Positions 4,378-42,338 of a stretch of 64,000 bases of DNA are shown here, piece by piece. Position 1 is the first letter of the stretch. Every line of letters begins with the position of its first letter. Both the position numbers and the translations under genes were made by a program. The notes beneath the pieces are model-generated. The model worked only from the letters and a program-made list of their open reading frames with translations. It ran no database searches and was not told where the DNA came from. The stretch lies in NCBI GenBank assembly GCA_002382735.1, contig DFZN01000043.1:35543-99542 (forward strand), read 5' to 3'. The stretch comes from a bacterium UBP11_UBA4055. Lineage in GTDB: Bacteria > UBA4055.

Positions 4378-4380
4378 GCT

Positions 4381-4950
4381 TTAATCTCCCTTGATTAGGT
4401 TTAACAACTTTTGCGTTATTACATTTTTTCTTTTTATTATAATTGTTTCCATTGTCTCAGTTTCTTTTTTTAGTAAAGAATCAAGCTCTACAATATGCTT
4501 TTGAATTTCTTTTGACGGTACTTCGATTTCCATCTCCTTAAGATTATTTATGCTTATGAGTTTCTGAGATGTCCCTTTCGAGATAATATTGTAATATTCT
4601 TTTGCAGATTTCTGATTCAGATACCAGTTAAGATATTCCGGCAATATGTCTTCTGCTTTCACTATTAATACTATTAGAGGTGCTGATGCCACTGCAAGTA
4701 TGTCTTTCCCAAAAATATAGGTAGAATTAATTTCTCCCCGCGTTTTGAAGAGTATATCGTTTTTCTTTAAATAATGATTTTCTCTTATCGAATCATCAGT
4801 GATGAAATCAATATTTTTAAAATCGATCTTATAATCCTTAAGATCTTTCATCTGGATAACACCGAGTTTTCCTTTCTGATACTTCTTTAACCCGTTACGA
4901 AATGTGTATCCCGTTTTTATTTCAGCTATATTATCAAGTTTAACCTTCAT
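4381..4950 (-). CDS. hsdS: Half-size (single TRD + conserved helix) Type I specificity subunit
   Basis: MKVKLDNIAEIKTG.., NDILF, PEYLNWYLN, GTSQKLI, IEVPSKEIQKHIV followed by an amphipathic helix. The start is probably 4950 (SD GGGGA) rather than 4968. Confidence 0.85.
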   Translation of the reverse strand: MKVKLDNIAEIKTGYTFRNGLKKYQKGKLGVIQMKDLKDYKIDFKNIDFITDDSIRENHYLKKNDILFKTRGEINSTYIFGKDILAVASAPLIVLIVKAEDILPEYLNWYLNQKSAKEYYNIISKGTSQKLISINNLKEMEIEVPSKEIQKHIVELDSLLKKETETMETIIIKRKNVITQKLLNLIKGD

Positions 4951-22764: not shown

Positions 22765-22813
22765 TTCTCCCTGATTTATTTTAATTATCTGTAAAGTTCG
22801 TCCAAAGAGAATT

Positions 22814-22842
22814 AATTTATGATTTTATTGCGTTTAAATCAA
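22814..22842 (-). promoter_or_regulatory. Possible internal promoter ahead of ligase-ACP-AOS genes
   Basis: Minus strand TTGATT-17 nt-TAAATT in a 110-bp AT-rich gap. Confidence 0.45.
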
Positions 22843-22874
22843 TCAAATTTTTATGTATTTAAGGGACAGTGTTT

Positions 22875-23489
22875 TTACCTTCCCAGATAATATTTAGCCG
22901 GCTCGTTGTCTTTATCCAGAATTATGACACTGCCGAAGATGAGTAGAGCTTCGTCCTTTTCGCCGTTTAAGAATTTACTTTCGGCGAGTATGTTCAAGAA
23001 TACGACATTCGTTGGAAAAATTGACACCATTTTTTCTGCTGTTTTTATTGCGAGATCATATTTTTTCTGCTTCATAAGAGCGACTGCGTACCAGTAATTT
23101 GCGTAATAGTTGTAATGATCTATTTTAAATACCTTTACAGATTGGATTTCGACCTTCTCCCATTCCATTTTAGCTACATTTATCAGATTTATAGTGTTCA
23201 GGACTTCGACTGAGTAGGGATAAATTAACAGAGCTGTTTCAAGATGTTTTTGAGCGTTCGAATAATTTCCGGAAAGATAATATAACCATCCGAGCCTGTA
23301 ATTTACCGTATAGCCTGAGGGATAATCCTTTATAACTTTACCGAGCGCAGAGATCGCCTTATCGTATTTCTGGCCCGTTTCAAATTTTATCGAGTTGTTG
23401 TAAGCCTCTTCCAGCTCTTTCTGCGTCATTTCTGCAACTAGTGATACAGTCGCAATAAAAAGGAACAGAATTAAGGATATTTTCTTCAT
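22875..23489 (-). CDS. Exported TPR protein
   Basis: Signal peptide MKKISLILFLFIATVSLVA; TPRs (YRLGWLYYLSGNY). Confidence 0.85.
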   Translation of the reverse strand: MKKISLILFLFIATVSLVAEMTQKELEEAYNNSIKFETGQKYDKAISALGKVIKDYPSGYTVNYRLGWLYYLSGNYSNAQKHLETALLIYPYSVEVLNTINLINVAKMEWEKVEIQSVKVFKIDHYNYYANYWYAVALMKQKKYDLAIKTAEKMVSIFPTNVVFLNILAESKFLNGEKDEALLIFGSVIILDKDNEPAKYYLGR

Positions 23490-24904
23490 TTTACTCTCCA
23501 GTTGTAGTTAGCCGTTATTGAATTCGTCAGTATGGTGTAGTCCTCAAAATCCGAAAAAGAAACCGTATAGCCCAGTATCCAGTCGCCGAACAGCTTTCTG
23601 AATATTACTCCGGCGATGATGTTGGTTTTAAGCTTTGAATCGTTCGTATTGAGATATCTGCCCTCGCCTGTGTTGACAAGGAATATATCGCCCTTCGAAT
23701 AGCTTGTAAAAATATCATAGTCTTCGCTTCTGAACCCCGCCGTGGCTCCGTAAAGAAATCTCGCGCCCCCTTTGACGATATCAGGTGAGAGCTCCGTAAC
23801 AAGAGTTTCTCTGTCGGAACTAAGCATGTCGGACGCATAATCCGAATCTATATCCTCAACTATATTCACTATGCCGCCAAGGAATACATAACCCAGATTG
23901 ACAGATCCGTCAAATGTAAACTGAAGAGAAGTGAAAGAATCCGTATATGTTTCGTATTTTTCCCCTCTGGGAAGGGGATTTACGACGAATTTGTAATAAT
24001 TGTAATTTATGCCTGAATAATTCACGAATGTGTCGCCACTGAAATATCTGCCTAACCCGAATCTTGCGCCGGCTGAAACTGCGCTCATGTTCTGGATATA
24101 GTCGTTCACGAGAATACTTCCCTTCAGCCCACCGTAAACTGTCAGAGCACGGTTCAGGGTATAATTGTACTGCCCGAAGAACTCGTACTGGCCAATATCG
24201 TCATAGAACAAAAACCCCCGCTCTTTGTTCATAGCAGGATCAATGCCCGTGCCCTGCAAAACGAAATTCGTGTTGAACCTGTGACGGGCTTTTCCGAAAT
24301 TATAGTTGATGTTGAAATTATAGCCGCCCAAAAGAAGCTCGTTACTGCCGTAGTCGTAGAAGGAGAATATTACATCTAAAAACCGCCTGTCCTCATTTAG
24401 CTTTGGAAGCAGAGTGGAGTAAGCCTTTCTGAATTCGTCCGAACCGAAACCGTCGCTTATTGCCTTGCCGTACCAGTCAGCCGTCTTCTGATAATAACCG
24501 GTCTGAGACAGTCCCCATCCCGTGAGAGAGTATATCTGCTTTTTTCTAAAATAATCACTACCCGATCTGAGAAGTTTTTCCGCATACGATGTTTTTCCGA
24601 GCAGCGCGTCAGAATAAATGACTCTGTCCTGATTCAATTCCGAATTGCTGAGCTTAAGAAGTTTATTGGCATATTTATTCGCAGTTTTGATCCCGCCTGA
24701 GTTTATACTCGCGTTGTATATACCTGTCATGGCTCCCGCATTCTCAGGATCGGAATTTTCAGCTTCGTAATAATATTCGAGTGCTTTTAACATATCGCCC
24801 TTAAAATAAAATTCATCGCCTTTTACAAGCAACTGTTCTGACCCTGTTGCCGCAAAAATATTCCCCAAAGCTGATAATAGTACTACAAAGAAGAAACATT
24901 TCAT
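23486..24904 (-). CDS. Exported protein: N-terminal TPRs plus probable outer-membrane beta-barrel
   Basis: Signal peptide, TPR region, then amphipathic strands (YNFNINYNFG, YEFFGQYNYT, WILGYTVSF) and terminal YNW. Confidence 0.65.
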   Translation of the reverse strand: MKCFFFVVLLSALGNIFAATGSEQLLVKGDEFYFKGDMLKALEYYYEAENSDPENAGAMTGIYNASINSGGIKTANKYANKLLKLSNSELNQDRVIYSDALLGKTSYAEKLLRSGSDYFRKKQIYSLTGWGLSQTGYYQKTADWYGKAISDGFGSDEFRKAYSTLLPKLNEDRRFLDVIFSFYDYGSNELLLGGYNFNINYNFGKARHRFNTNFVLQGTGIDPAMNKERGFLFYDDIGQYEFFGQYNYTLNRALTVYGGLKGSILVNDYIQNMSAVSAGARFGLGRYFSGDTFVNYSGINYNYYKFVVNPLPRGEKYETYTDSFTSLQFTFDGSVNLGYVFLGGIVNIVEDIDSDYASDMLSSDRETLVTELSPDIVKGGARFLYGATAGFRSEDYDIFTSYSKGDIFLVNTGEGRYLNTNDSKLKTNIIAGVIFRKLFGDWILGYTVSFSDFEDYTILTNSITANYNWRVK

Positions 24905-26979
24905 ATCTTTGTTATCCTTATCTCTTTCCCGCCGGACATTATACCCACTTCTCTTATGCCTTTTCGCTGACAGAGCTCAGCTTCCGTCCGGGCTGACACC
25001 TTACCGTTCTTCACGATCCTTCCCGTTACCTTTTTGCCGTCATGTTTTGCGTAGAATCCCTTCTGGCTGCTTAGACCGGTTCCGAAAGATTTTATTAAGA
25101 GAGGAATTCTTGAACTTCTAAGCACATTTTCAGGAATATATTCGTTCCATTCTATATCGTCGTCGTCGGAAAACGGGACAGAGGGAAGCGCGAGGAAAAA
25201 ATATCGTAAGGCTGAAGTATAATTCCCGTCGTATTTGAAGAAAACGAACCTGCCTTTATCGGTACCGAAGTACAATCTGCTTCCTTTGCCGTCGGAAAAA
25301 TAATATGTGCCTTCTACTTCCATCCCGACCTTTAATGTCAGATCGGATATTACCCTGCCGTTTTCTGTCACTTTATAGCTGAACTGCTCATCGAGAACGA
25401 ACTGAAGTTTTCTCGAAAGCGTTTTCGAAGTGACGAGCGGAATGACCGTGTCGTTCTTTGAAAGATATTTTGCATCTGTATCCTTTCCGTTGACCTTGAG
25501 AGAGTTGAAGGCGAATTCTATGCCGGGCGTTCCTATCAGATGATTAAGTTGTACCTGAACATGAAGGTGAGGCTCGGGCGAATAACCTGAATTCCCGCAT
25601 TCGGCTATGAGCCGGCCTTTTGTAATCTGGTCGTTCTTTTTGACTCTGACCGAACCCTGTTTCAAATGCGACAGTTCGACATAATATCCCGGATAAACAT
25701 AAATTATGATATAATTCCCCCAGTTGCTGGATTTATCGACCTCGCCTATCTCATTGTCGTCAAGGTCGTCGAACACTTCGACTACCGTACCGTCGGCCGG
25801 AGAGAGTACGGGTTTTCCGAAGCAGAAATAATCCTCTCTTTTTGACCCGTCGCCGGAAAATGTTTTACCGTTCTCCGAAATAACGAAGTCGTACGCATAT
25901 TTCCAGAACCCTTTGTGCGTCCACTCGCCGTCAAATCCCTGATAAACAGTCCATTTACCGGAGAACGGCAGCCTGATCGAAGGCGTGACCCAGTCGAACC
26001 TGTTCGAATAGTTGAGGTGGTCAACGAGCGCCATCTCAGGCTGTTCGAGGCCGGTTGAGTTCATCATCACATATTTCACGCTTCCGAGAACATAGATGTA
26101 TAAGAGCACAGTAAGGTTGAACGGAAGGGTGAATACCGGTATGCCGAAGGAGATCCAGAACACAGATGCGGCGTCAATGATGAAGACCGAGCCGAGTACT
26201 GCCGTCAGGGTCAAGAGGTATGTCCTCTTGGACGGTATCAGGAACATTCCGCCGAGAGCAGCGCCGACGAGTATGAAGTTGAATGAGGATATTTCGGCGA
26301 AAGCGAGCGGGATGCTTCCCTTTAACAGAGACAGGAAAAATATTCCTGCGTAATACGAAGCGACGGCGGAAAAGAATGTAATTCTGGAGTACAGAAGTAT
26401 CGCGAGCAGAAGTATCAGTCCCACGATGTCGTAAGGCATGAATATCAGTATGCCGGCGGCGCGTAGGAGACCCTGTACATATCCGGGCAGAAAGTCGAGG
26501 TTAAAATATTCCTGCTTATAGAATGAGTCGACGATAAGGCTGCTGTATTTACCTGAAGCAAGATATATTATCGTAGCCGAGATCGTGAAAGGGATGTTGA
26601 GCACCGGCAGTTTGAAGTACAGATACAGCGCAGAACTTATGGTATATGTGAGAAGGACGGTAAATATGCTCATTCCGACTGCCAGCAGCATCGAAAGGTA
26701 AGTTACCTTGAATATGAACCCGACAGCGAACCCGGTCAGAAGCGCGTTGTAGGTGAGAAGCTTGTTGACAGGATCATCCTTTTTTATTCCGATGAATCTG
26801 GAGAATAATAGAGCGGTGATCAGCCCGATAATTCCCGTAAGAGCTATATTTCTGTTGAACAGTGTCGCAAAGAAAAGAATGAGGCCGAGCGCCTGATTTC
26901 TTATGAAGAACAGGTTGGAGTAGGCGTGGAGCAGTTCTCGAATGAACTCAGCGGCCTTCGAAGCTCTTTTTTCTTCCAT
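24901..26979 (-). CDS. Urea-transporter-like membrane domain fused to an M23 peptidase domain
   Basis: ~300-aa polytopic N-terminus (YNALLTG, LPVLNIPF, IPVFTLPFN); M23 motifs H..YAYD, SHLKQGS, GNSGYSPEPHLH. Confidence 0.85.
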   Translation of the reverse strand: MEEKRASKAAEFIRELLHAYSNLFFIRNQALGLILFFATLFNRNIALTGIIGLITALLFSRFIGIKKDDPVNKLLTYNALLTGFAVGFIFKVTYLSMLLAVGMSIFTVLLTYTISSALYLYFKLPVLNIPFTISATIIYLASGKYSSLIVDSFYKQEYFNLDFLPGYVQGLLRAAGILIFMPYDIVGLILLLAILLYSRITFFSAVASYYAGIFFLSLLKGSIPLAFAEISSFNFILVGAALGGMFLIPSKRTYLLTLTAVLGSVFIIDAASVFWISFGIPVFTLPFNLTVLLYIYVLGSVKYVMMNSTGLEQPEMALVDHLNYSNRFDWVTPSIRLPFSGKWTVYQGFDGEWTHKGFWKYAYDFVISENGKTFSGDGSKREDYFCFGKPVLSPADGTVVEVFDDLDDNEIGEVDKSSNWGNYIIIYVYPGYYVELSHLKQGSVRVKKNDQITKGRLIAECGNSGYSPEPHLHVQVQLNHLIGTPGIEFAFNSLKVNGKDTDAKYLSKNDTVIPLVTSKTLSRKLQFVLDEQFSYKVTENGRVISDLTLKVGMEVEGTYYFSDGKGSRLYFGTDKGRFVFFKYDGNYTSALRYFFLALPSVPFSDDDDIEWNEYIPENVLRSSRIPLLIKSFGTGLSSQKGFYAKHDGKKVTGRIVKNGKVSARTEAELCQRKGIREVGIMSGGKEIRITKI

Positions 26980-26991
26980 GCTCTCCCGCTG

Positions 26992-28344
26992 TTACAAATT
27001 AAATTTTCTTAGTTTGTCAGGCACGAACTCCGGTCCTGTAATGTCCTCGAGCTTTTCTGCCCGCCTGATCTGCTCAAGCTTTCCGTCCTCCATTATCATC
27101 GCTACTGCCGGACGGTAGCGGATGAACTGCATCCACTGCGTCACATTATATGCGCCCATGGGCGACAGGATTATCCTTGTCCCTTTGGGCAGAGGAGGAA
27201 GAAACGCGCTTTCTGCGACGACATCGATATTCATGCAGAGCGGACCGTACAGTATGCTGTTCTCGTACGCGCCGTGAAGCTCGCGGTCTATCTCGACCTT
27301 GTAGTTGTACCAGGCTGAAGTGTAGAGCAGATTCACGCCGGCGTCGATGATGTAGGACTTCGTCCCGTCGGGCAGGCGCTTGACCGCATCGACGGTTGAG
27401 ATAAGCCAGCCGGCCTCGTCCACTATAGCGCGCCCGGTCTCGAGATACACATCCGGATACTCGTCCGGCGCGAGCTCGTCAAGAAGCGTGTCCGCCACGG
27501 CGTCGATGAAATTCTCGACGGGCTGGACGGCGACTTCGGGCGGAAGATAGGTCCCTTTAAGTTTGTTGTTCGAAGGAAAACCGCCCCCGAAATCGAGGTA
27601 CGATATTGTTATTTCAAATTCATGCTCTATCTTCCGCATCAGCTGCACAACTTTTTTCACTGCCTCTTTGTACGCGTTTGGATCCATCATGAATGTACCT
27701 ATGTGGCAGTGTATCCCCTCGAGGTGCAGATGTTCGCTGTGAGAGATCCTCTTCACAGCGTTGAAGGCGCCGTTGTTCTCGATCGGGAAGCCGAAGCGCG
27801 ACCACTGCGGATAAACTCCCGTGTCCATGTTGACCCTTATGCCGACGGAAACTTTTTTCCCGACTTTTTTTGCGGCTTCCTCCGCCTTGATGATCTCGTC
27901 AAAATTGTCGAGGTTCACCATCGCGCCGTCGGTAAAAGCGGTCACGAGAGAATCCAGCGGCTTATACGGTCCGTTGTAGATTATCCTGTTACCCGGCACG
28001 CCGAGGCTCCTCGCCTTTTCGTACTCGAAGTCGGACACGACCTCGGCAGTCTCACCCTCTTGGTGCAGGATCGAGCATACCGCGCCGAGATAGTTCGTCT
28101 TGTAGGACCAGCTCATCTTCGCTTTCGGGTACTTGCTGGAGAAATATGAATAAATTTTCCTGTACCTTTCCCTTATCACCTTCTCGCTCAGGACGAAAAC
28201 GGGGGATCCGAACTCATCGGTGAACCTGCCTATGGGAATTCCTTCGATGTCCTCCCTGTGGCCTTTGTTGTATGTCACACCGAACTTGTTCATCACTCCG
28301 GCCGACTGTCTTTTTATGTATGGTTTGATGTATTCTTTTTTCAT
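26992..28344 (-). CDS. Fold-type III PLP enzyme (DAP/Orn/Arg decarboxylase family)
   Basis: SYKTN (PLP Lys), HCHIGT, DFGGGF, ETGR, GPLCMNID, GAY. Confidence 0.9.
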   Translation of the reverse strand: MKKEYIKPYIKRQSAGVMNKFGVTYNKGHREDIEGIPIGRFTDEFGSPVFVLSEKVIRERYRKIYSYFSSKYPKAKMSWSYKTNYLGAVCSILHQEGETAEVVSDFEYEKARSLGVPGNRIIYNGPYKPLDSLVTAFTDGAMVNLDNFDEIIKAEEAAKKVGKKVSVGIRVNMDTGVYPQWSRFGFPIENNGAFNAVKRISHSEHLHLEGIHCHIGTFMMDPNAYKEAVKKVVQLMRKIEHEFEITISYLDFGGGFPSNNKLKGTYLPPEVAVQPVENFIDAVADTLLDELAPDEYPDVYLETGRAIVDEAGWLISTVDAVKRLPDGTKSYIIDAGVNLLYTSAWYNYKVEIDRELHGAYENSILYGPLCMNIDVVAESAFLPPLPKGTRIILSPMGAYNVTQWMQFIRYRPAVAMIMEDGKLEQIRRAEKLEDITGPEFVPDKLRKFNL

Positions 28345-29393
28345 TTTTTCACCTCTCCTGATTCGCCGTAAGTGCTTATCTGTTCAAAATCGGATATGTC
28401 TTTTACAAGTTCGTTGGTGTATCTGATCATCAGTTTGCCGCTTTTGTAGTCAGAATGAGTTTCAAACTCCTGACCCGTTAAAAGTTTTACCATTCTCGCA
28501 GGCAGATTTATCCCGCATCCGGCCGGAAAATACACCCATGCAGGGAATCTCGGGTTTATCTCGAGCACATAAATGTCCTGAGTTTTGTTCTCCATGAGCA
28601 CTTCGAACTCGAACCCGCCGCGCCATTTCAGGCCGCTCACGACCTTTTTTGTAGCCTCGATCAGCCGCTCGTTCCTTATGCTGACGGCGTTCCATACCTT
28701 ACCGAGCTTGGTTATTGTCATCTTGCGGATAGCGAAAACGCCCATGTCGTTGCCTTTGCCGTCCCCGCAGCCTATCACATCGTATTCGTCGCCCTGAATG
28801 AACTTCTGGGCTATGATCGGGTAGCCCCATGCGGCCGCGATCTTGATAAAATAACCTTCAGCCTCGCCGGGTGAAGTCGCCTTGAACGCTTCATAGAACG
28901 GGCCTTTGACCATGCAGGGAAAACCGAGCTTCTCTGTGGCCTTGTGCAGGTCGGAAAGTGATGTGCAGCTTATGTATTCCGGTGCTTTCACGCCTATTTT
29001 TTCCGAAAGTTCTTTCAGTTTGAGTTTGTCCCTTAGTCTGAACATCTCCTTTGTGGGTATCAGCATCTTTATGCCCATTTCCACCAGCACCGGCTCGATA
29101 TCCATATAGATCGGAAGTTCGGCGTCTAAAGCTGAGATTATCACATCAAGGTTTTCTTTTTCGTGGATATCCCTGATACGCTCGATAAATGCTTCTTTAC
29201 TGCCTGACGGATATGGCATTATGTAACTTTTGTCTATTATGTGATCAAGATATATTCCAGGTTCAAGAGCGTCGTAGGCAAGACCGATCGCCCTGATCTC
29301 CATCCCGCTTTCCTTAAGCGCACGGCATATTCCGGCACCCGGCCCCGGATTGTCTATCGTATTAATTCCGCTCACCGCGACTGTTATTTTCAT
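28341..29393 (-). CDS. ATP-grasp ligase
   Basis: DKL, PCMVKG, QKFIQGDE, FEFE, LEINPRF. Confidence 0.9.
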   Translation of the reverse strand: MKITVAVSGINTIDNPGPGAGICRALKESGMEIRAIGLAYDALEPGIYLDHIIDKSYIMPYPSGSKEAFIERIRDIHEKENLDVIISALDAELPIYMDIEPVLVEMGIKMLIPTKEMFRLRDKLKLKELSEKIGVKAPEYISCTSLSDLHKATEKLGFPCMVKGPFYEAFKATSPGEAEGYFIKIAAAWGYPIIAQKFIQGDEYDVIGCGDGKGNDMGVFAIRKMTITKLGKVWNAVSIRNERLIEATKKVVSGLKWRGGFEFEVLMENKTQDIYVLEINPRFPAWVYFPAGCGINLPARMVKLLTGQEFETHSDYKSGKLMIRYTNELVKDISDFEQISTYGESGEVKK

Positions 29394-29402
29394 ATTAGCC
29401 GC

Positions 29403-29648
29403 CTAAACAAGAAAATATTTTTTGAGATTTTCGACAAAATCCTGAATATCGACAGTTACTTCATCGTCGGAAGCCTCGAATTCATCCATGATCGCCGACT
29501 TTATCTCATCCTCTTCCTTACCCGCCTTCAGAAGCTCAAGGATCTTAAGCCCGGTCGCGTTAGCTGTGTACGAATGACCCGTCACAGGATCGAAAATGAA
29601 GCCGCTGTCGCTTATTGCAAGTACCGATAATTTGTCTCTGTCCATCAT
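29403..29648 (-). CDS. Stand-alone PqqD/RRE-family protein
   Basis: 81 aa; beta-strands FIFDPVTGHSYTANATGLKILELL then helices EIKSAIMDEFE..EVTVDIQDFVENL, the PqqD wHTH pattern. Confidence 0.85.
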   Translation of the reverse strand: MMDRDKLSVLAISDSGFIFDPVTGHSYTANATGLKILELLKAGKEEDEIKSAIMDEFEASDDEVTVDIQDFVENLKKYFLV

Positions 29649-29740
29649 AAATTCTCCGATAGATTTTTCACAGGTGAACGGAACGCCGGGGTATTTATTT
29701 CACATACCGCCTGATCTGCTGCTTTTTTCAACAGCTTGAT

Positions 29741-29769
29741 AATATACTAATGAAAATCGGTTTTATCAA
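29741..29769 (-). promoter_or_regulatory. Promoter of the PqqD/ATP-grasp operon
   Basis: Minus strand TTGATA-17 nt-TATATT; ~86-nt leader. Confidence 0.6.
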
Positions 29770-29827
29770 TTAAAATAGATTCGGTGAATAAGTAATAACG
29801 ATCATATCCAACATCGAAAATATCTGA

Positions 29828-30250
29828 TTATTCTTTTATCAGATTCACTGTAAAAATATAATCAGTTTTAATTTCGCACTTTTTATTTTCGGTGTTAGTT
29901 ACGACTAACTTAAAAGCGATGTTTGTAGTCTTCTTTATCTTTATCAGTTCTTTTATCATCGAGATATTGAAGTGCCTAGTCGGTTCTTTGTTAGGATCGA
30001 TAAAAACGGTTCGCTTTAGAATTTCTTTACCATCATCCAAAAGGCAAACATCGATAGTTTTGAGCTTTAAATCCTTTTTATAATTTGTAGTTCTGAATAA
30101 AAAACTCAAAGGGAAAATCGCTTCACCTGTGAAATTTTTGCTGACTTTTGCATTTAACTCATTTACCAAACCAACAATTGTATGTTTGCCACCGATTTCA
30201 CTTCTTATATCGTCACAAACTATCACATCATTTAATTTAATATTTTCCAT
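29828..30250 (-). CDS. Beta-rich hypothetical protein (DUF6941-like), third gene of the TA operon
   Basis: VIVCDDIRSEIGGKHTIVG. The start at 30250 (SD GGAGA) overlaps the antitoxin 3' end by 14 nt. Confidence 0.7.
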   Translation of the reverse strand: MENIKLNDVIVCDDIRSEIGGKHTIVGLVNELNAKVSKNFTGEAIFPLSFLFRTTNYKKDLKLKTIDVCLLDDGKEILKRTVFIDPNKEPTRHFNISMIKELIKIKKTTNIAFKLVVTNTENKKCEIKTDYIFTVNLIKE

Positions 30251-30866
30251 TTTGATCTCCTGCGTTATAATCATTACTGCTTTCTTTTACCATCTTATAT
30301 TTCTGTTCCGTAACTATGTAACCATTTTCGCTAACAGCGATCAATGAAACAGCGGAAGCATTTGAAATCTCCGGACTTGCATATTTATTTCTTTCAACAA
30401 GATCGAACTTCTTCATCGCTGCCTCTTTGAATACAGCATCAGTATATTTTTTATCGAACTTACGGGCGGCTACATAAATGATCCATGGATAACTTCTTAT
30501 AACCCTTAACAGAGTTAATCCAATAGCTGAATAATTCAATCTGCTTTTCCACCTTGAGAGTGTGCGGACAGGCAATCCCAATGAATCTTCAATATCCTTA
30601 AGTTTTATATTCTTCTTATTAAAGAATTCAAGAATATTCTTTATTGAGCTTTGCTCAGATATTTTCTGAGCTTTTTCATATTCATCTGTGTAATTCAGCG
30701 TGAAGTTTATTTCATCACCGCATTTCTTGCATCTCAATATTTTTTCTTCAAACTCAACTATTTCACCGAAAGGCACATACTCTGTCTGCTTTTCAATTAC
30801 AGAAGTAAAACTTTCGTTTCCGCAGTAATTGCATTTGATATTTTTCCCATTCAGCTTCATAATCAT
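30237..30866 (-). CDS. MqsA-like antitoxin: Zn ribbon + XRE HTH + ~70-aa C-terminal extension
   Basis: CNYC...CKKC, LKDIEDSLGLPVRTLSRWKS, LLRVIRSYPW. Confidence 0.8.
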   Translation of the reverse strand: MIMKLNGKNIKCNYCGNESFTSVIEKQTEYVPFGEIVEFEEKILRCKKCGDEINFTLNYTDEYEKAQKISEQSSIKNILEFFNKKNIKLKDIEDSLGLPVRTLSRWKSRLNYSAIGLTLLRVIRSYPWIIYVAARKFDKKYTDAVFKEAAMKKFDLVERNKYASPEISNASAVSLIAVSENGYIVTEQKYKMVKESSNDYNAGDQNGKY

Positions 30867-30874
30867 TCCTTTCT

Positions 30875-31282
30875 TTAGATCAATCCCAGTTCGCGCAACT
30901 GCCTTCCCAGATCTGTTTCTTTTTTTCCGTAACCTTCATCATACTTCTTAAACGATTTTATAACCCATATTCCGGTATATTCTGAAAGATAAAACGCAAG
31001 ATAACCGTCAATAAACTTGTAAACGAACATATAAGAATCTACTTTCGGTGGCGGAGTTTCTGATGTCTTTTCCAAATCCCGGGTTTTGAGGTATTTCAAC
31101 TCTTTTATATTTAAATTTATGACCGCAGAGAATAATTCATTCTTATTATCGATACCGAAAACAGACTTTGCATCCTCAATAACCTTTGTCTTGATCTCTA
31201 CGGTATTTTTGCCATTCATTGCAAACTTACACGCTGTCTTCAATTTGCCGAATTCATAATATGGTCCCGATTTTGCCAACAT
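30875..31282 (-). CDS. MqsR/RelE-like toxin (putative)
   Basis: GPYY N-terminus, DSY, YLAF, VIKSFK; lies directly upstream of the Zn-HTH gene. Start is likely 31282. Confidence 0.65.
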   Translation of the reverse strand: MLAKSGPYYEFGKLKTACKFAMNGKNTVEIKTKVIEDAKSVFGIDNKNELFSAVINLNIKELKYLKTRDLEKTSETPPPKVDSYMFVYKFIDGYLAFYLSEYTGIWVIKSFKKYDEGYGKKETDLGRQLRELGLI

Positions 31283-31294
31283 TTCTTCCCGTTT

Positions 31295-31336
31295 ATACAC
31301 GGAATGTATTATAATGATACACAACACGAAATGCAA
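31295..31336 (-). promoter_or_regulatory. Consensus promoter of the TA operon with overlapping palindrome
   Basis: TTGCAT-17 nt-TATAAT (31336-31308); palindrome ATACA-cggaa-TGTAT at 31295-31309. Confidence 0.75.
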
Positions 31337-31514
31337 GAAGATTTATTAATTTCTTTTTGGCGGCGGGAAACAAATTGTGGCGACAGTGTATCTACAATCG
31401 TATATTACTTGAAATATTTATTACTTATATAAAGTCTAACTTACTAAGAACAACCTACCCCAACACATAACCCGCAAGGATCTTCTGCACTTCATAAATA
31501 TGATACTTTTCCCT

Positions 31515-31557
31515 TTGACTTTACAGAGGATTTACTTTAAATTGATACTGTAAAAGT
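31515..31557 (+). promoter_or_regulatory. Promoter of the DUF4365-like cassette, framed by an inverted repeat
   Basis: TTGACT-17 nt-TAAATT; TTTACAG (31520-31526) / CTGTAAA (31548-31554). Confidence 0.55.
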
Positions 31558-31579
31558 GAAAAAGAGAATAAAATAAACC

Positions 31580-32095
31580 ATGATGACTGAACAACATATA
31601 AAAGAAGCAATCTCTAAGAAATTTATAGGCTTAATTGCTTCAAAGTGCGGATATTCTACCTCTGAACCTTCTCAAGATTACGGTAGAGATTTATCAATTG
31701 TTGAAGTTGGTATCAGGAACGAAAATAATAAATCCAGATATTCTGAAACCGGTAGAGAACTTAAATTTCAACTTAAGGCTACAACTGAAAATTCTGTAAT
31801 TGTATCAGACGATAATCTTAAATATGATCTGGAAGCAAAAAATTACAACGATCTAATTATGAGACGCAATACGAAAAGTCCGCTTATTCTTGTGCTTTTT
31901 ATACTCCCGACAAATCAGACTGAGTGGCTGATTGTGTCAGAAAACGAACTAATTTCAAAAAAATGTGCTTATTGGTATATTCCTCAACAAAACGAAGCAA
32001 CAACAGAAAACACCGATACTAAACGAATCGTAATTAATAAAAACAATCTTGTAAATCCTGAGTCATTAAATCAACTGTTTGAAGAGTACGCATGA
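31580..32095 (+). CDS. DUF4365-like PD-(D/E)xK nuclease-fold protein
   Basis: DYGRD, FQLKAT, YDLEAKNYNDL, PLILVLFILP, CAYW. Confidence 0.85.
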   Translation: MMTEQHIKEAISKKFIGLIASKCGYSTSEPSQDYGRDLSIVEVGIRNENNKSRYSETGRELKFQLKATTENSVIVSDDNLKYDLEAKNYNDLIMRRNTKSPLILVLFILPTNQTEWLIVSENELISKKCAYWYIPQQNEATTENTDTKRIVINKNNLVNPESLNQLFEEYA

Positions 32096-33189
32096 TGAAT
32101 AACGAAATCATTTACAAAAATATTAACGATTTACTTTCGGGCAGAAATTGGACTTTGGCTGATACGAAAAGTAAATACGACATTTATTTACCTCCGCAGG
32201 ATTTGAACTTTGAAAACAGCTATAAGTTATTTCTATACAATAAACCCGATTTCTCAGATTACGAATCCGAGATAATAAAAATTCTTGAAATATTATCCCA
32301 AATATATAAAGAAGACCCTGACGAATTGGCTTCGATAGTAATTGAGGACCGTCAGATATTATCTTTGCATATCTCAGATGACGACAAACTGGATGAAAGA
32401 CCAAGCATACCATTTTTCGATAATTTAATCCATAAGGCTAAAGAGCTGCTTCAGGAAAATGCGAATTTTACTGTCATGCAACAGGCACACCTCTTTGACA
32501 GATGCGAAGAATCCGAAAGATACCTGAATTACTGCAACTTTTTCAAAAATGATAAAGGTAGTTTAATAACCAAGATTCAGCTCCCTAACAAAGAAGAAAT
32601 AAAAGAAAGCAATCTTTTTAACAAACCTATTACCGGCAACTCTATAAACAACAGACTAATGCAAATAACTAAATTCATTAATGACAAAATAATTACAGCT
32701 GACAATTATGAGCCGGATGATGCATTTCTATTAAAAAATCAGGATAATATCAGTGTTAATGTGTCAGGGAAATTAAGAGAACTCTATCTCGGCGTAGATT
32801 TAGCCGACATGGAAATAACACTTAACAGCACAGAGAAAAAACAAACTACTTTTGTAAAGAATCTTACTAAAGACAGCGTAGAAAATTTAAATAAATTCTC
32901 GAAAGTAATACGGGAAAGAATGAAAGAAATATTAGACGATCAGTTTGTAGGAAAAGTAGTCAAACTGGAATCTAAAGATATCGAAAGCGACAAAAATAAA
33001 GTCTATGTTTTAGCTGAAATCAAAAAGATAAAAAAGAATGTACTCGTTTATCTTGACTCTGACGATTATCAAACAGCCATAGAGGCGCACAAAAACAATA
33101 AATCCGTATTAGTAAACGGAACAATTGAAAAAGAAAAAACTCAATACAAAGTCACAGAGCTAAAATCGTTCAAAAAACTCTCGGAATAA
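32092..33189 (+). CDS. Hypothetical protein coupled to the DUF4365-like gene (365 aa)
   Basis: ATGA overlap with the upstream stop; C-terminal OB-like strands FVGKVVKL...DYQTAIEAHKNNKSVLVNG. Confidence 0.8.
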   Translation: MMNNEIIYKNINDLLSGRNWTLADTKSKYDIYLPPQDLNFENSYKLFLYNKPDFSDYESEIIKILEILSQIYKEDPDELASIVIEDRQILSLHISDDDKLDERPSIPFFDNLIHKAKELLQENANFTVMQQAHLFDRCEESERYLNYCNFFKNDKGSLITKIQLPNKEEIKESNLFNKPITGNSINNRLMQITKFINDKIITADNYEPDDAFLLKNQDNISVNVSGKLRELYLGVDLADMEITLNSTEKKQTTFVKNLTKDSVENLNKFSKVIRERMKEILDDQFVGKVVKLESKDIESDKNKVYVLAEIKKIKKNVLVYLDSDDYQTAIEAHKNNKSVLVNGTIEKEKTQYKVTELKSFKKLSE

Positions 33190-33216
33190 ATCGGTAAAAT
33201 AAAACCCAAGAGACGC

Positions 33217-34449
33217 ATGGATCAGACAGAAAAACCTACTTTTTTAATCAATCCCGACAGGTTCAGATATCAGCTTGAACGGTATAATATGTCTGTTCCG
33301 GAATTTCTAATTCTGATCAACGAGGACAGGACGAGAGATGTTTATACAAAAGAGGATATTGACGATTATCTGAACGGGAAAGCTAAAGTCAACGAAAGGT
33401 TCTTATCAAGGTTTGATAAAATATTTGAATCTGGCCTCTCATGGGTGATCTCGAACAGAGCTTTGCCGGACAAAATGAAAATGAGCATTTTCTTTAGAAA
33501 AGACACCTTCAATTCTGAACTCAATCTTGAATCGAGAAAGAAGATTGCGCAGTTCGAGGAACTCAAGACAGAAATAAGCATAATGACCAAGCAGATCGGC
33601 TTTAAATCTGAGCGCAAACTAAAACAATTTACCTGTGAAGATAATCCCAAATCAGTTGCGCTTGAAATAAGAGAAGAATTCGACAAAGCTATTGAGCTTC
33701 TAAAGAAAGAAAAAGAGATCAATAAGCACAGGGACGAGAAAGATTATCTGAAAAACCTCATATCCGCCTGCGAATATTTCAACATCTTCGTATTTGAATT
33801 CATTGACAGAAGCAGAACGCCGGGGAACGATATCCGCTTTAACGGTTTTTACACTCATCCGAACATCATAGCCATAAAAAGAAATCAGAATTACATGAAA
33901 AGGGAGATCTTCACTCTCGCCCACGAACTCGCGCATTATCTCATCAATGCCGAAGAAATAGATGAAGTCATTGAATCATTCGTCAAAGGTAAAACCGAAA
34001 GATGGTGCAACGATTTCGCATTTCATTTCCTACTCGGAAAACACATAAATACATTCAATGCACTACCTGAAGCTACAAGCGAGAACAATTTTCACAGAAC
34101 CACTATTAAACAATTATCTGAGCAAACATACCTGAGTGAATACGCATTCTACACACGCCTGAAAATCGAAAACAAAATATCAGATTCCGATTATAATGAT
34201 AAAAAGAATCAGATCGAAGCAGCCTTCAGAGCTACATTAGACGCGAAAAAAGCCCAGCAGGATTTACAGGATGAAATAGCAAAACTACAGGGAATCGATC
34301 AATTTAAATCCGGCCCCAAAGAAATAAGATCAAAGCTTTTTGAAGAGATCGTCAAGCTCAATTACTTTCAGGGAAACATAAACGAAACACAGGCAAGAAA
34401 ATACCTGAAAGTAAGCAAAGATAAAACACTCGATGAGGTAATCTACTAA
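33217..34449 (+). CDS. ImmA/IrrE (M78) Zn-metallopeptidase with degenerate N-terminal HTH
   Basis: FNGF, FTLAHELAH (HExxH), ERWCNDFA. Confidence 0.9.
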   Translation: MDQTEKPTFLINPDRFRYQLERYNMSVPEFLILINEDRTRDVYTKEDIDDYLNGKAKVNERFLSRFDKIFESGLSWVISNRALPDKMKMSIFFRKDTFNSELNLESRKKIAQFEELKTEISIMTKQIGFKSERKLKQFTCEDNPKSVALEIREEFDKAIELLKKEKEINKHRDEKDYLKNLISACEYFNIFVFEFIDRSRTPGNDIRFNGFYTHPNIIAIKRNQNYMKREIFTLAHELAHYLINAEEIDEVIESFVKGKTERWCNDFAFHFLLGKHINTFNALPEATSENNFHRTTIKQLSEQTYLSEYAFYTRLKIENKISDSDYNDKKNQIEAAFRATLDAKKAQQDLQDEIAKLQGIDQFKSGPKEIRSKLFEEIVKLNYFQGNINETQARKYLKVSKDKTLDEVIY

Positions 34450-35018
34450 TGGCACAAATCCTCGTCATGGACACATCAAGCATAATTCACTATCTCCACT
34501 ATTACAGATTCGACAAGTTCCATTCAAAAGAAATCTATAACAAACTCAACAGCTTTATCTATCGAAAAATCACCGAAGGCAAAATCCATATAATAGATAA
34601 AGTATATGACGAACTACAAGACAGACTAGAAACAGCCGAAATTAAAAGAATTATACATCCTCATAAGAAATCCACACTTGATTTACTCCCCGAAGTTCAA
34701 GAACTCATTGAAAAATATAAAATACTCGGAATAGTAAGAACTCTCGCATCAGAAGAATTAGAGCTTGAGTTAACAAAATATGAAAACACAATAGCTGATC
34801 TCTTCCTCGTAGCTTACTGCAAAAAACTGCGAAGCCAAGGACACCAACCCATACTCATCAACGACGAAACAAGAAAAAGCGATAGAAAATTCATAGCTAA
34901 AATCCCCACAATCTGCATAGCAGAAGAAATCCGGTTTGAAAAAATCCCGGATGTACTCTTTGAAATATACAAAGACGAGCTTGAATTTAGTCTAGACAAA
35001 AACTTATTATTGAGGTAA
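34449..35018 (+). CDS. DUF4411-like PIN-domain protein
   Basis: MDTSSII, IIDKVYDEL, ADLFLVAY, INDE, KIPTIC; TAATG coupling to the peptidase. Confidence 0.85.
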   Translation: MAQILVMDTSSIIHYLHYYRFDKFHSKEIYNKLNSFIYRKITEGKIHIIDKVYDELQDRLETAEIKRIIHPHKKSTLDLLPEVQELIEKYKILGIVRTLASEELELELTKYENTIADLFLVAYCKKLRSQGHQPILINDETRKSDRKFIAKIPTICIAEEIRFEKIPDVLFEIYKDELEFSLDKNLLLR

Positions 35019-35021
35019 CTA

Positions 35022-35588
35022 TTGGAAAAAACAATAACTAAAGATAAGAATATGGAATTCCATTTGCTTGAATATCAGATGATATTTAACGATTTGGCAA
35101 GATATGATTCTCAAAGCCAAAAAAGTATAACTTTTTTCTCTATAATCATTACTGTGTTATTCTCCTACGGTATGAAGGAAAATATTAATGAAGTCTTCCT
35201 TGCGTTGCCTTTATTACTGATAATCTATTATTCTTTTTTATTAAATAACTCTTATGCCTATTTAATAAGAGAAAAGTACATAATGCAAATTGAAAATATG
35301 TTGTCAGAAAATTCTACTCACTTCTTTTCTGAAATTGTACAAAACTTGTATTATAATAAAAAGAAATTAAACTATCTTAATCCTTTCTCTTTCCTGATTA
35401 TTACAATAACTATAATATGCACTATTCTTATTTTTTTTTGCTTTTATAAAATCTCTAAATATTATACTTTCTCATCTTTACTCGTTTATTTTTGCTTACT
35501 AATAGCTTATATTTCTTGTTGCTGGTATATTTATAGAAAGTCTGTTTATAGGTTAAACAATATTTATAATATTAGAAAAAGGGGATAA
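35022..35588 (+). CDS. Small membrane protein with ~4 TM segments
   Basis: EY..IFNDL helix, two hydrophobic hairpins, REKYIMQIE linker; start is TTG 35022 or ATG 35052. Confidence 0.75.
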   Translation: MEKTITKDKNMEFHLLEYQMIFNDLARYDSQSQKSITFFSIIITVLFSYGMKENINEVFLALPLLLIIYYSFLLNNSYAYLIREKYIMQIENMLSENSTHFFSEIVQNLYYNKKKLNYLNPFSFLIITITIICTILIFFCFYKISKYYTFSSLLVYFCLLIAYISCCWYIYRKSVYRLNNIYNIRKRG

Positions 35589-35591
35589 AAA

Positions 35592-36167
35592 ATGAACAAA
35601 AAAAATACTTTCGATGACTTCGTAAACGCAGAAGTTGCAAAAACAAAAAAGCCTGAACATATAAAAGAAGACTGGGAGAAGAGAAAAAAAGACTGGGTAA
35701 AGCAGACGCAAGATTTTTTCCAAAAAATTAGGCTATGGCTTAAAGAATACACAGATTCTGGTAATATAAAATTAGAATCATCGGAAATAACAATTAATGA
35801 AGAGGAACTTGGCAGCTACAAGGTAGATGAGTTGAATATTGTAATTGGATCAAAAGTAGCAAAGTTAACACCGTATGGCACCATACTTATTGGTGCAAGT
35901 GGTAGAATCGACCTTACTTACGGGACAAATAAAATAAAATTTATTCTCACAAATAAAGATTTGAAAGGTATTGGGTTTACAACTAAAATATATTCAAATC
36001 AAGCCAAGGAAAAAATAGAGAAAGAAAATAAAGAAGAAGTAAAAAAAATGCAGAAGACTACTAATTTAGAGTGGAAAATTGCCACGGAACCACCTATTAT
36101 TACGTTTAAATCCTTAGATAAAGAATCATTCCTTAATGTGTTAATGGCTGCTATGGTTGAAAAATAA
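35592..36167 (+). CDS. Hypothetical protein (191 aa)
   Basis: Clean ORF with SD GGGGA; motif EEELGSY...LTPYGTILIGASGRIDL. Confidence 0.8.
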   Translation: MNKKNTFDDFVNAEVAKTKKPEHIKEDWEKRKKDWVKQTQDFFQKIRLWLKEYTDSGNIKLESSEITINEEELGSYKVDELNIVIGSKVAKLTPYGTILIGASGRIDLTYGTNKIKFILTNKDLKGIGFTTKIYSNQAKEKIEKENKEEVKKMQKTTNLEWKIATEPPIITFKSLDKESFLNVLMAAMVEK

Positions 36168-36666
36168 TATGAAGATAGATATCCTTGATTTTGATACAAT
36201 TGCGCAAATTTTTGAGTATAGAAAAAAAGCTTTAAATTTTTTATATAGTGAAACTAATCCTGAGTATACAACATTATTTTTAGGATTGTCGAGGTCTGAA
36301 ATACTGGAACAAAAGAAAAATGAAATCAAAGAAATAGAAAGAGATGCTTGTTTAAATATTATTGCATCCGTTGAAGCTCGTTTTATGGAAGACTTTAAAT
36401 TCAGAGTAAAAAGAAATAGGTCTAATAATATATTCAGAAATATATTGCCATTTGCTTCAAAGCCAGACAGAATACCAATTGATCACATTATTGATGCTTG
36501 GAAAGTGCAAGAAATAATTGCAAGTGGCATACTCTCAAGATTTAAAGGTGCGTACAAATATAGAAATTGGTTAGCTCATGGCAGACACTGGGCAAAACCT
36601 CAAGAGCATGATTTTTGGGATTTATATACTATTGCAATCTCAACTCGTTTACTACCATTGAACTAA
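36157..36666 (+). CDS. HEPN-domain protein (putative RNase)
   Basis: All-helical 169 aa with RNWLAH (R-x4-H); overlaps the upstream gene by 11 nt. Confidence 0.75.
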   Translation: MKNNMKIDILDFDTIAQIFEYRKKALNFLYSETNPEYTTLFLGLSRSEILEQKKNEIKEIERDACLNIIASVEARFMEDFKFRVKRNRSNNIFRNILPFASKPDRIPIDHIIDAWKVQEIIASGILSRFKGAYKYRNWLAHGRHWAKPQEHDFWDLYTIAISTRLLPLN

Positions 36667-36673
36667 AAATGAA

Positions 36674-37729
36674 TTGGATTATATTATGGATAACGCAGCA
36701 AATAAACTCGAAGGTATAACTCTTAAATCAGGTTGGCTCGTAAAAAAGAAAATTGAAAAATATGACAACCAAACAGGTTCGATTTTTTCAGTCTGTTACA
36801 AAGCAGAAAAAAACGGAGTAACATGTTTTTTAAAAGCATTTGATTTCTCTAAATTCTTTATGTTACATGCCGGTAAATCGGCAATGGAGGTACTAAATGA
36901 AATGTCAAGTGCTTATCTTTATGAAGAAAAATTATCTAATTTTTGTAAAAATAAACATGTGAAGAAAGTTGCATTCGTTATAGAAGCCGGACAAGAAATT
37001 GTAAATGGTTATGCTATAAATATTGTACCATACTTAATTTTTGAGCTTGCTGATGGTGATGTGAGAAAAAAATTAACTATTTCAAAAAATCTAGATTATG
37101 CTTGGAGGTTAAAATCACTTCACGATGTAGCAATAGGCTTAAATCAATTACATAAAATTAATGTCATGCATCAAGATTTAAAACCTTCTAATATTCTTGT
37201 ATTCAGTGATGAATGTAAGATAGGCGATCTTGGTAGGTCTTTATGTAATGACATTGATAGCCCTTTAAGAAATATTTCCTTTTCGGGTGATTTTAATCAT
37301 GCACCTCCTGAAATATTATACAATTATTATGATCCCGATTTAAACAAACGAGCTTATGCTGCTGATTGTTACCTTCTAGGCAGTTTAATAGTATTCTATT
37401 TTTCAGGTTTTAGTATGAATGCACTTTTGATAAAACATATTGAGGATTGTTTTAGTTGGCCGAAGTGGACTGGTAGCTTTACAGAATTGGAACCCTATCT
37501 TGAGCATGCTTTTTCAAAAGCATTAAAGGAATTTGAACATAATATTGATAACATTGAAATTAAGAAAGGTACACTAGAGCTTGTTGAATATTTATGTAAT
37601 CCTATTCCAGCGAAAAGAGGTCATCCGAAAAGTATAGCTTCTATCGGAAGCAATTACAGCTTAGAAAGATTTGTCTCTATGCTGGCTACTCTACAAAAAA
37701 AAGCTGAAGTTATGGTTACACATGGCTAA
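36674..37729 (+). CDS. Ser/Thr protein kinase
   Basis: TGSIFSVCY, FLKAFD, HQDLKPSN, KIGDLG, HAPPE, DCYLLG. Confidence 0.92.
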   Translation: MDYIMDNAANKLEGITLKSGWLVKKKIEKYDNQTGSIFSVCYKAEKNGVTCFLKAFDFSKFFMLHAGKSAMEVLNEMSSAYLYEEKLSNFCKNKHVKKVAFVIEAGQEIVNGYAINIVPYLIFELADGDVRKKLTISKNLDYAWRLKSLHDVAIGLNQLHKINVMHQDLKPSNILVFSDECKIGDLGRSLCNDIDSPLRNISFSGDFNHAPPEILYNYYDPDLNKRAYAADCYLLGSLIVFYFSGFSMNALLIKHIEDCFSWPKWTGSFTELEPYLEHAFSKALKEFEHNIDNIEIKKGTLELVEYLCNPIPAKRGHPKSIASIGSNYSLERFVSMLATLQKKAEVMVTHG

Positions 37730-39293: not shown

Positions 39294-39448
39294 TGAATCA
39301 TTCCTGTTTTCAGTATTGAAGTAAGATTATCCGCAATCTGTTTGCGGTTAAGCTTATCATATTTTGCATTAAATGGATCTTTTTTATCGAAATCTAGTTT
39401 TTCTGAATTTGACATAATTCTGCCTTATGTAATTATTTATAACCATTC

Positions 39449-42253: not shown

Positions 42254-42338
42254 AAACTACTCCGTTCTTTGTAGTACTAAAGTGTAATATTACGATAATA
42301 TAAGGACTTGAACAGTATTTCGCAATTCAATTAATTCT

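Follow-up and report, generated by a model that had tools for sequence, protein, structure and literature searches.

A candidate three-gene toxin-antitoxin module with a DUF6941 beta-sandwich protein in the place of SecB

Toxin-antitoxin-chaperone (TAC) systems are toxin-antitoxin (TA) modules in which the genes follow one another in the order toxin, antitoxin, third gene; their antitoxins, of the MqsA, HigA/XRE or HicB type, have C-terminal extensions whose length and composition differ greatly (PMC5105189; preprint 10.1101/2024.02.24.581848). The third protein of the SecB-type systems holds the antitoxin tail, the ChAD, which varies more than any other part of these antitoxins, and in HigBAC it also senses a phage protein (PMC5105189; 10.1101/2024.02.24.581848). 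The protein sensed by HigBAC is gpV of phage lambda; another defence system of this kind is CmdTAC. In a survey of RelE/ParE toxins from 2025, the chaperones of the three-component toxin-antitoxin-chaperone modules described are all SecB-like (PMC11980606), and no TAC system without SecB is described in the literature that we searched. At present, three-part TA systems with a dedicated chaperone that keeps hold of a destabilising tail of the antitoxin are known only with SecB-like proteins. Here we analyse a cassette of three genes, g1 (candidate toxin), g2 (candidate antitoxin) and g3, in a stretch of 64,000 nucleotides (hereafter the window) of the bacterium UBP11_UBA4055 (assembly GCA_002382735.1, contig DFZN01000043.1, positions 35,543 to 99,542 of the forward strand).

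We read the cassette as a three-gene TA module built like a TAC system, in which a sandwich protein of the DUF6941 type stands where SecB would be expected, and we hold the chances of this reading to be about even. That g3 belongs to the module is well supported; that it binds the antitoxin tail or senses phage is what we infer from the analogy with SecB. An earlier inspection of the letters of the window and their open reading frames (ORFs), the sequence-only reading, had proposed an MqsRA-like pair with an extended antitoxin and a third gene of another fold filling the role of SecB. It is partly supported, and none of the computational refuting tests that were run went against it.

The cassette and its conservation

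The trio is present, in identical order, in every context of a g1, g2 or g3 homologue in which the contig is long enough. It occurs in about ten metagenome contexts and in 20 of the 43 loci returned by a scan of GTDB (one genome per species), in which the DUF6941 signature served as the search pattern and local hidden Markov model searches looked for g1 and g2 upstream. These 20 loci belong to roughly ten phyla, the taxa being Lentisphaerae, Chloroflexi, Legionellaceae, Spirochaetes, Fibrobacterota, WWE3, Gammaproteobacteria, Myxococcota, Nitrospina, Desulfobacula and Clostridia. At the gene junctions there are small overlaps in some loci and gaps of up to about 30 nt in others. The flanks vary (Fic, ORF6N/Bro-N, RmuC, DUF1016, an Eco57I-type restriction-modification (R-M) system, SWI2/SNF2 helicase, radical-SAM, ParA, Rep3 replicon), and the neighbours at other trio loci include R-M, TIR, helicase, Rep3 or ParA genes. 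Two of the 20 GTDB loci have no detected g1: in one (L042) the end of the contig cuts it, and in the other (L020, Fibrobacterota, 3415-4426) an MqsA-like antitoxin and a DUF6941 protein are kept with no toxin ORF upstream. This locus, which has lost the toxin and retained the two other genes, indicates that the antitoxin and g3 form a linked unit.

The arrangement is far beyond chance. The sequence-only reading depended on gene 3 being conserved beside such TA pairs, and it strictly is, in all the homologue contexts examined. It could still be argued that g3 is an unrelated passenger beside an ordinary two-gene MqsRA-like module, an explanation effectively refuted by co-occurrence: the order and spacing of the trio are kept in over 30 independent loci from different phyla; g3 overlaps g2 and, with a ratio of nonsynonymous to synonymous substitution rates (dN/dS) of 0.03-0.06, is under stronger constraint than g1 or g2; and a TA-like pair lies directly upstream, in the same orientation, in 48 of the 57 DUF6941 loci sampled (43 from genomes and 14 from viral contigs, the two samples being independent).

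All three ORFs called by the sequence-only reading on the minus strand are present (Table 1). Its gene order stands, and the start of the toxin gene is moved from 31336 to 31282. Judged from the homologues, which start at this position, ATG 31282 is most likely the start of g1; TTG 31336 was rejected, the upstream part of the longer ORF being occupied by a conserved promoter. The gap between g1 and g2 is 14 nt, and the g2 ORF is the gene call on record (P0041), with an AAGGA motif 6-7 nt 5' of its start. The start of g3 lies inside g2, with a 14-nt overlap with the end of that gene, and a ribosome-binding site (AGGAG, 30257-30261) is found 6 nt upstream of it, also within g2. This start (MENIK) is used in all homologues, from whose starts an alternative ATG at 30274 was rejected. 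The overlap and the internal AGGAG make translational coupling of g3 plausible, as had been claimed.

Table 1. Positions of the cassette, its parts and its neighbours in the window
Feature	Position	Strand	Remarks
Whole cassette (promoter, g1, g2, g3)	29821-31501	minus	1.68 kb; discrete, horizontally shared unit
Promoter and candidate operator	31305-31336	minus	From an alignment of six homologous loci
g1, candidate toxin	30875-31282	minus	135 amino acids (aa), MLAKSG...; distantly MqsR-like (RelE/ParE superfamily)
g1 residues 113-135	30878-30946	minus	YDEGYGKKETDLGRQLRELGLI; C-terminal extension without MqsR counterpart
g2, candidate antitoxin	30237-30860	minus	207 aa, MKLNGK; MqsA-like, with an extension of ~80 residues
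g2 residues 128-158	30387-30479	minus	IIYVAARKFDKKYTDAVFKEAAMKKFDLVER; conserved extension past the helix-turn-helix (HTH)
g2 residues 159-207	30240-30386	minus	Variable C-terminal tail, candidate ChAD-like element (conservation and dN/dS)
g3, DUF6941-like protein	29828-30250	minus	140 aa, MENIK; predicted all-beta sandwich
g3 residues 9-27	30170-30226	minus	Family signature V-I-V-C-D-D-I-R-x-E-I-G-G-K-x-T-x-V-G (28-member alignment)
Low-GC variable defence island, cassette at one edge	29700-42314		12.6 kb
PDC-M02A and PDC-M02B	31580-33189	plus	DUF4365, 171 aa, PADLOC E 1e-47; 365 aa, E 1e-26; two-gene PADLOC candidate defence system, divergent from the cassette
ImmA/IrrE-type M78 metallopeptidase and DUF4411 protein	33217-35018	plus	410 aa, capP-like in PADLOC; 189 aa; 1-nt overlap
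Three consecutive ORFs	35022-36666	plus	188, 191 and 169 aa; no Pfam or PADLOC match
PDC-M71A and PDC-M71B	36674-39293	plus	Protein kinase, E 1e-148; TPR protein, E 5e-162; PADLOC candidate defence system
ORF in island	39449-42253	minus	934 aa; no Pfam or PADLOC match
Co-directional cluster adjoining the island	21055-29648	minus	PqqD-like (81 aa), ATP-grasp, PLP-dependent Orn/DAP/Arg decarboxylase, urea-transporter/M23 peptidase fusion, unknown 472-aa protein, TPR, AMP-binding enzyme

The candidate toxin, the candidate antitoxin and their promoter

Searches of Pfam and NCBIfam gave no match to g1 at E <= 1, and there was none in PADLOC or among PDB sequences; MqsR_toxin (PF15723) matched none of the 20 members of the g1 family, and PHROGs returned a weak match only, to a family of unknown function. 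In a profile-profile comparison with hhalign, a profile of the g1 family (A5), built from metagenome and genome homologues, matched a profile of bona fide MqsR (A6; E. coli K-12 MqsR and eight annotated plasmid MqsR proteins) with Prob 89% and E 2.3e-6 over 97 columns (query 2-109 on template 6-103 of 106), the aligned blocks including VDAY/QDVY, GYiAF/vYiKF and KSFK/VSFKE. The lone E. coli MqsR or MqsA sequence gave no significance in hhalign, and family profiles from plasmid records were needed. Since the profile-profile match is full-length, we take g1 to be a distant relative of MqsR, below the thresholds of the curated families. MqsR ends at SFKEK, and all g1-family members run on for about 20-35 residues further; this extension is under very strong constraint in close homologues (dN/dS 0-0.04, against 0.08-0.14 for g1). 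Of the catalytic residues proposed for MqsR, which we take to be K56, Q68, Y81 and K96, the third maps in hhalign to Y94 of g1, which is nearly invariant, and the fourth to K/H112 (the first two are considered below). Further invariant residues of the family are K109, W106, C18 and P7.

The case for g2 is similar. The MqsA model TIGR03830 matches it over the whole profile (E 1.4e-4) with 21.6 bits vs a cutoff of 61.8, and it matches 19 of the 21 g2-family members at E <= 0.01 (best 1.1e-7), all below the cutoff. In hhalign the g2 family aligns with the MqsA family with Prob 75.5% and E 2.4e-5, residues 1-127 of g2 covering positions 1-130 of 140. C10, C13, C44 and C47, invariant in the 21 members, form the two CxxC pairs of an N-terminal zinc ribbon, which is followed by an XRE-type HTH (the Pfam HTH_3 match is weak). 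By these comparisons g2 is a distant MqsA relative, and the zinc-ribbon/HTH antitoxin of the sequence-only reading is recovered. Its label of MqsRA-like holds in the sense of distant homology (hhalign E 2e-6 for g1 and 2e-5 for g2), with scores short of the curated models.

All 21 members of the g2 family continue for 57-91 residues past the HTH, vs about 5-12 in real MqsA. The sequence-only reading had described a tail of some 70 residues; a C-terminal extension is indeed present in g2, and it comprises about 80 residues beyond residue 127, of which the first part (128-158) is conserved and only the second (159-207) is variable. The majority-residue frequency in 128-158 is 0.77 among close homologues, with a dN/dS of 0.06-0.16, and a VAxxxF[DE]xxxA pattern is retained in distant members. 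In the tail the frequency falls to 0.38 (0.22 in the wide alignment) vs 0.71-0.83 in the domains, and the dN/dS rises to 0.47-0.59 vs 0.04-0.18. TAC antitoxins have been described as varying most in the ChAD, and the variability of the g2 tail matches this description.

The promoter consists of a -35 box TTGCAT (31331-31336), a 17-nt spacer and a -10 box TATAAT (31308-31313). The pattern CTTGC-N12-TGTAT(C/T)ATTATAATACA is invariant upstream of six homologous loci, with divergent flanks. Over the -10 box lies a 17-bp palindrome, TGTATCATTATAATACA (31305-31321), read directly from the sequence, which is a candidate operator. An automated sigma-70 scan and an inverted-repeat scan did not pick up the promoter or the palindrome; the cross-locus alignment did. 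By analogy with MqsA autoregulation, g2 would bind this palindrome, which differs from the MqsA operator palindrome ACCT-N-AGGT. A second inverted repeat (31374-31398) upstream of the promoter is shared only by the closest homologues (L006 and L001); it is perfect in L006 (ATTGTCGTGACA-C-TGTCACGACAAT), where a T-rich run follows, and may mark the edge of the mobile unit or serve as a terminator.

The conserved palindrome over the -10 box invites another view of g3, that of a transcriptional co-regulator which binds the extension of g2 and tunes its operator binding, as a corepressor or anti-repressor, with no effect on the folding or stability of the antitoxin. In line with this view, all DUF6941-linked antitoxins are DNA-binding (HTH or ribbon-helix-helix), and third-gene regulators are known from the three-gene TA operons omega-epsilon-zeta and paaR-paaA-parE. 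However, g3 itself has no DNA-binding features, the HTH is already on the antitoxin, and a fast-evolving tail beside a strictly conserved partner fits a binder of client proteins better, so we regard a purely regulatory g3 as distinctly improbable.

The DUF6941 protein and its possible role

The Pfam family DUF6941 (PF22091) matches g3 over positions 3-122 of the 125 in the profile (E 7e-5), with 23.7 bits vs a gathering score of 27. It also matches 21 of 28 relatives of g3 (best 3.7e-8), and one homologue (L066) carries a precomputed match labelled 'DUF6941 (weak)'. Its members are few: exhaustive scanning of 1.84 billion representatives with HMMER gave 25 matches at E <= 1e-3, and a k-mer-seeded protein search found close relatives only. 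No paper in the literature that we searched mentions DUF6941, and no function or structure is attached to the family there. In g3 the motif CDDIRSEIGGKHTIVG occupies residues 12-27; C12, D14, R16, E18 and G27 do not vary among 28 divergent members of the family, and D13, K22 and L48 hardly do.

An AlphaFold2 (AF2) model made with five close homologues was unusable (mean predicted local distance difference test score, pLDDT, 51.6). The model made with 28 diverse sequences, used throughout, is confident (pLDDT 93; predicted template modelling score 0.85) and shows a ten-stranded all-beta sandwich with no helix of four or more residues. The best Foldseek matches in the PDB are the Ig-like sandwiches PDE6delta, RhoGDI, UNC119 and the Wzt carbohydrate-binding domain (Wzt-CBD), at E ~1e-4; in the viral library they are phage proteins (about 135 aa, uncharacterised) that reach template modelling (TM) scores of up to 0.64. 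SecB is absent from the top Foldseek matches, and no SecB family of Pfam or NCBIfam matches g3. We rejected SecB as an identity for g3 on these grounds and for the lack of long helices in the predicted fold. Thus the DUF6941-type beta-sandwich put forward by the sequence-only reading, and its denial of a SecB fold, agree with the model and with the family matches, the match of g3 itself lying below the gathering score.

The clustering of invariant residues (Cys, Asp, Asp, Arg, Glu and Lys) in one hairpin and the very strong purifying selection on g3 could also be read as marks of an enzyme or of a protease adaptor, which would modify or deliver the antitoxin or the toxin (by processing the tail, or by hand-over to Lon or ClpXP, for example) and would in that way act as a negative regulator of the antitoxin or as a second effector. 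Adaptor-type components of TA systems have a precedent in SocAB. Against this, the Pfam, PDB sequence and Foldseek searches gave non-enzymatic sandwiches only and detected neither a catalytic fold nor a catalytic family, no His is invariant in the g3 family, and g3 is a small single domain of 140 aa. We consider this explanation improbable.

What DUF6941 proteins share outside the trio is best seen from the pairs that precede them. These pairs are (i) HicA and a long HicB (Pfam HicB, E 2.8e-13), (ii) DUF4258 and a 240-aa MqsA-like protein, (iii) ParE_toxin and HTH_3, (iv) DUF4160 and a DUF2442-like HTH protein and, in nine genome loci, (v) a protein of an uncharacterised family of about 170 aa with an XRE-HTH protein. 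The antitoxins of most of these pairs carry 35-100 low-complexity residues past the DNA-binding domain. In IMG/VR viral contigs, 14 of 14 DUF6941 loci follow ParE-like and XRE or 170-aa and XRE pairs (tblastn with g3 against phage GenBank records gave no match), and the same arrangement is present on plasmids of the cultured strains Bosea sp. NBC_00550, Rhodoferax antarcticus and Burkholderia vietnamiensis G4, where the genes are annotated 'hypothetical' or 'XRE regulator'. In a neighbour-joining tree the DUF6941 clades largely track the type of the accompanying pair. Recruitment behind at least five other TA families, with antitoxins that are mostly variable-tailed, is the same pattern as that reported for SecB in TAC systems (PMC5105189).

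The family of about 170 aa (165-190 aa; consensus ...VWxFxxR...R[IL]FGxF...D.FVA...) always precedes an XRE-HTH protein and a DUF6941 protein (loci L022, L026, L030, L032, L035, L037, L039, L044, L053 and L088; viral loci L073, L077 and L081-L086). It has no Pfam or PDB sequence match and is a candidate new toxin family.

Two further groups of loci have no TA pair. One is a separate DUF6941-like clade of Nitrospirota (L041, L043, L048, L055 and L056), with no TA neighbours and beside a queA-like gene, from which the family may have a second role apart from TA systems. The other comprises L021 (2831-4456) and L024 (2783-4465), in which an unknown Cys-rich protein (about 354 aa; split in L024) stands in front of a DUF6941 protein that falls inside the MqsRA-type clade.

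How the cassette might work can be suggested on the model of the SecB-type systems. The diverged MqsR-type toxin g1, presumably an mRNA endonuclease, would be neutralised by the zinc-ribbon and HTH body of g2, which probably also represses the operon via the 17-bp palindrome. g3 would bind the extension of g2 and thereby control the stability or activity of the antitoxin. Neutralisation would thus depend on g3, as in chaperone addiction, and g3 could be the point at which an invader, through a phage protein for example, sets the toxin free. More broadly, and with slightly less confidence than an even chance would express, we propose that DUF6941 is a second class of partner for TA modules, structurally unrelated to SecB: a beta sandwich that captures the variable tails of antitoxins, as a holdase and/or as a sensor of invaders. 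At least six toxin families (MqsR-like, ParE/RelE-like, HicA, DUF4258, DUF4160 and the new 170-aa family) would have recruited it independently, in chromosomal defence islands, plasmids and prophages of many phyla, and chaperone addiction, instead of being peculiar to SecB, would be a design principle arrived at by convergence.

Several observations weigh against these proposals. The polar motif (C-D-D-x-R-x-E...G-K) is invariant in all TA contexts and the tails have no detectable motif in common; such a motif looks more like a catalytic site, a ligand-binding site or a site for a common partner than like a groove for variable clients, and it fits a generic client-binding chaperone poorly. The structural likeness of g3 to PDE6delta and RhoGDI is weak (TM 0.35-0.49, root-mean-square deviation 6-10 A, identity 6-16%). 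At least one DUF6941-linked antitoxin (L052, ParE-type) has little C-terminal tail past its HTH, and about nine of the 43 genome loci, the Nitrospirota clade included, have DUF6941 with no TA pair. In g1, the counterpart of K56 of MqsR is position 66, a K in the window protein and mostly N in the wider family, and Q68 maps to V81; two of the four catalytic positions thus have no equivalents, and the activity of g1 may differ from that of MqsR. Finally, the sequence of the cassette was found in DNA metagenomes only, with no RNA record.

The same motif leads to the most serious of the alternatives, in which g3 is a sensor or trigger and not a holdase. Here g1 and g2 would be self-sufficient, and the DUF6941 protein would bind a phage component or a small ligand at CDDxRxE and act on the tail to release the toxin, being needed for activation and not for neutralisation. 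A polar motif that stays the same across all TA contexts while the tails vary would be expected of such a protein; its predicted fold resembles ligand- or tail-binding sandwiches (PDE6delta, RhoGDI, UNC119 and Wzt-CBD); the cassette lies in a defence island; and the third protein is the phage sensor in SecB-type TAC systems. On the other hand, none of the TM scores behind this resemblance reaches 0.5, the computations do not separate a sensor from a holdase, and the g2-g3 pair without a toxin in L020 argues for a constitutive relation between the two proteins. We judge a sensor of this kind unlikely, and keep as our working reading the TAC-like module in which g3 holds the tail of g2.

If that reading is right, the control of antitoxins by a tail and its keeper evolved more than once, and DUF6941, annotated merely as 'hypothetical protein', gains a function. 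Unrecognised candidate defence modules would be added in bacteria, plasmids and prophages, and an uncharacterised 170-aa candidate toxin family would be brought to light.

Genomic setting and comparison with described systems

The island at whose edge the cassette lies has a GC content of 0.30-0.36, vs 0.40-0.51 in the rest of the window; that of the cassette is about 0.335. Its other contents are given in Table 1. PADLOC has no model for any of g1, g2 and g3. The M78 peptidase and the DUF4411 protein look like another TA or sensor-effector pair, and the co-directional cluster on the other side of the cassette is possibly a peptide-modification or small-molecule pathway.

By blastn, the block 29821-31501 is common to two other loci, L001 (96.7% identity) and L006 (85%, in an unrelated context). 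L001 has the flanks of the window, PqqD at one end and Fic with PrmA at the other, around a different island content. The same 1.68-kb block amid different neighbours argues that the cassette is mobile as a discrete unit and lies in a variable hotspot of defence. L001 (GCA_028691405.1, contig JAQUZI010000021.1, 8.8 kb) is labelled Candidatus Paceibacterota. It matches the window in three separate places at 89-97% identity, namely in the cassette, on the side of PqqD and on that of Fic and PrmA, from which we place it in the same lineage as the window; the taxonomic label of this short binned contig may be unreliable.

Comparison with described families and systems places the cassette as follows. 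Pfam DUF6941 is matched by g3 over its full length, the N-terminal motif included, with a score below the gathering score. PDE6delta, RhoGDI and UNC119 resemble g3 by analogy of fold only: they are Ig-like beta sandwiches of about 140-150 residues and among the top Foldseek matches in the PDB. These proteins shield the C-terminal tail of a partner inside the sandwich. In contrast to g3 they have eukaryotic clients, and g3 shows no sign of common ancestry with them or of a lipid pocket; the resemblance of the predicted fold is a lead, not a classification.

With MqsR/MqsA of E. coli the cassette shares the position of the toxin as the first gene, the N-terminal 2xCxxC zinc ribbon and C-terminal HTH of the antitoxin, collinear full-length profile matches and a palindrome in the promoter. 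It differs in that both g1 and g2 fall below all curated thresholds and a third gene is added. MqsA has 131 aa and g2 has 207 aa, and g1 carries a constrained extension of 23 residues and does not conserve the positions of K56 and Q68.

Among the TAC systems (HigBAC of M. tuberculosis; MqsRAC, HigBAC and CmdTAC of E. coli) the third protein has the alpha/beta fold of the SecB tetramer, whereas g3 is a predicted all-beta DUF6941 sandwich. DUF6941 also stands behind ParE-like, DUF4258 and DUF4160 toxins and the unknown 170-aa toxin family, and the extension of g2, unlike that of TAC antitoxins, has a conserved first third (residues 128-158). As it has no SecB, the cassette is not a member of the TAC group as currently defined; that it functions in a TAC-like way is plausible. 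The likeness nevertheless extends to the whole plan: toxin, antitoxin and third gene follow in this order in one operon, the antitoxin joins a conserved DNA-binding body to a variable C-terminal extension, the third gene is paired with several antitoxin families (here MqsA-like, XRE/HigA-like, HicB and DUF2442-HTH), and the modules are carried on mobile elements and in defence islands.

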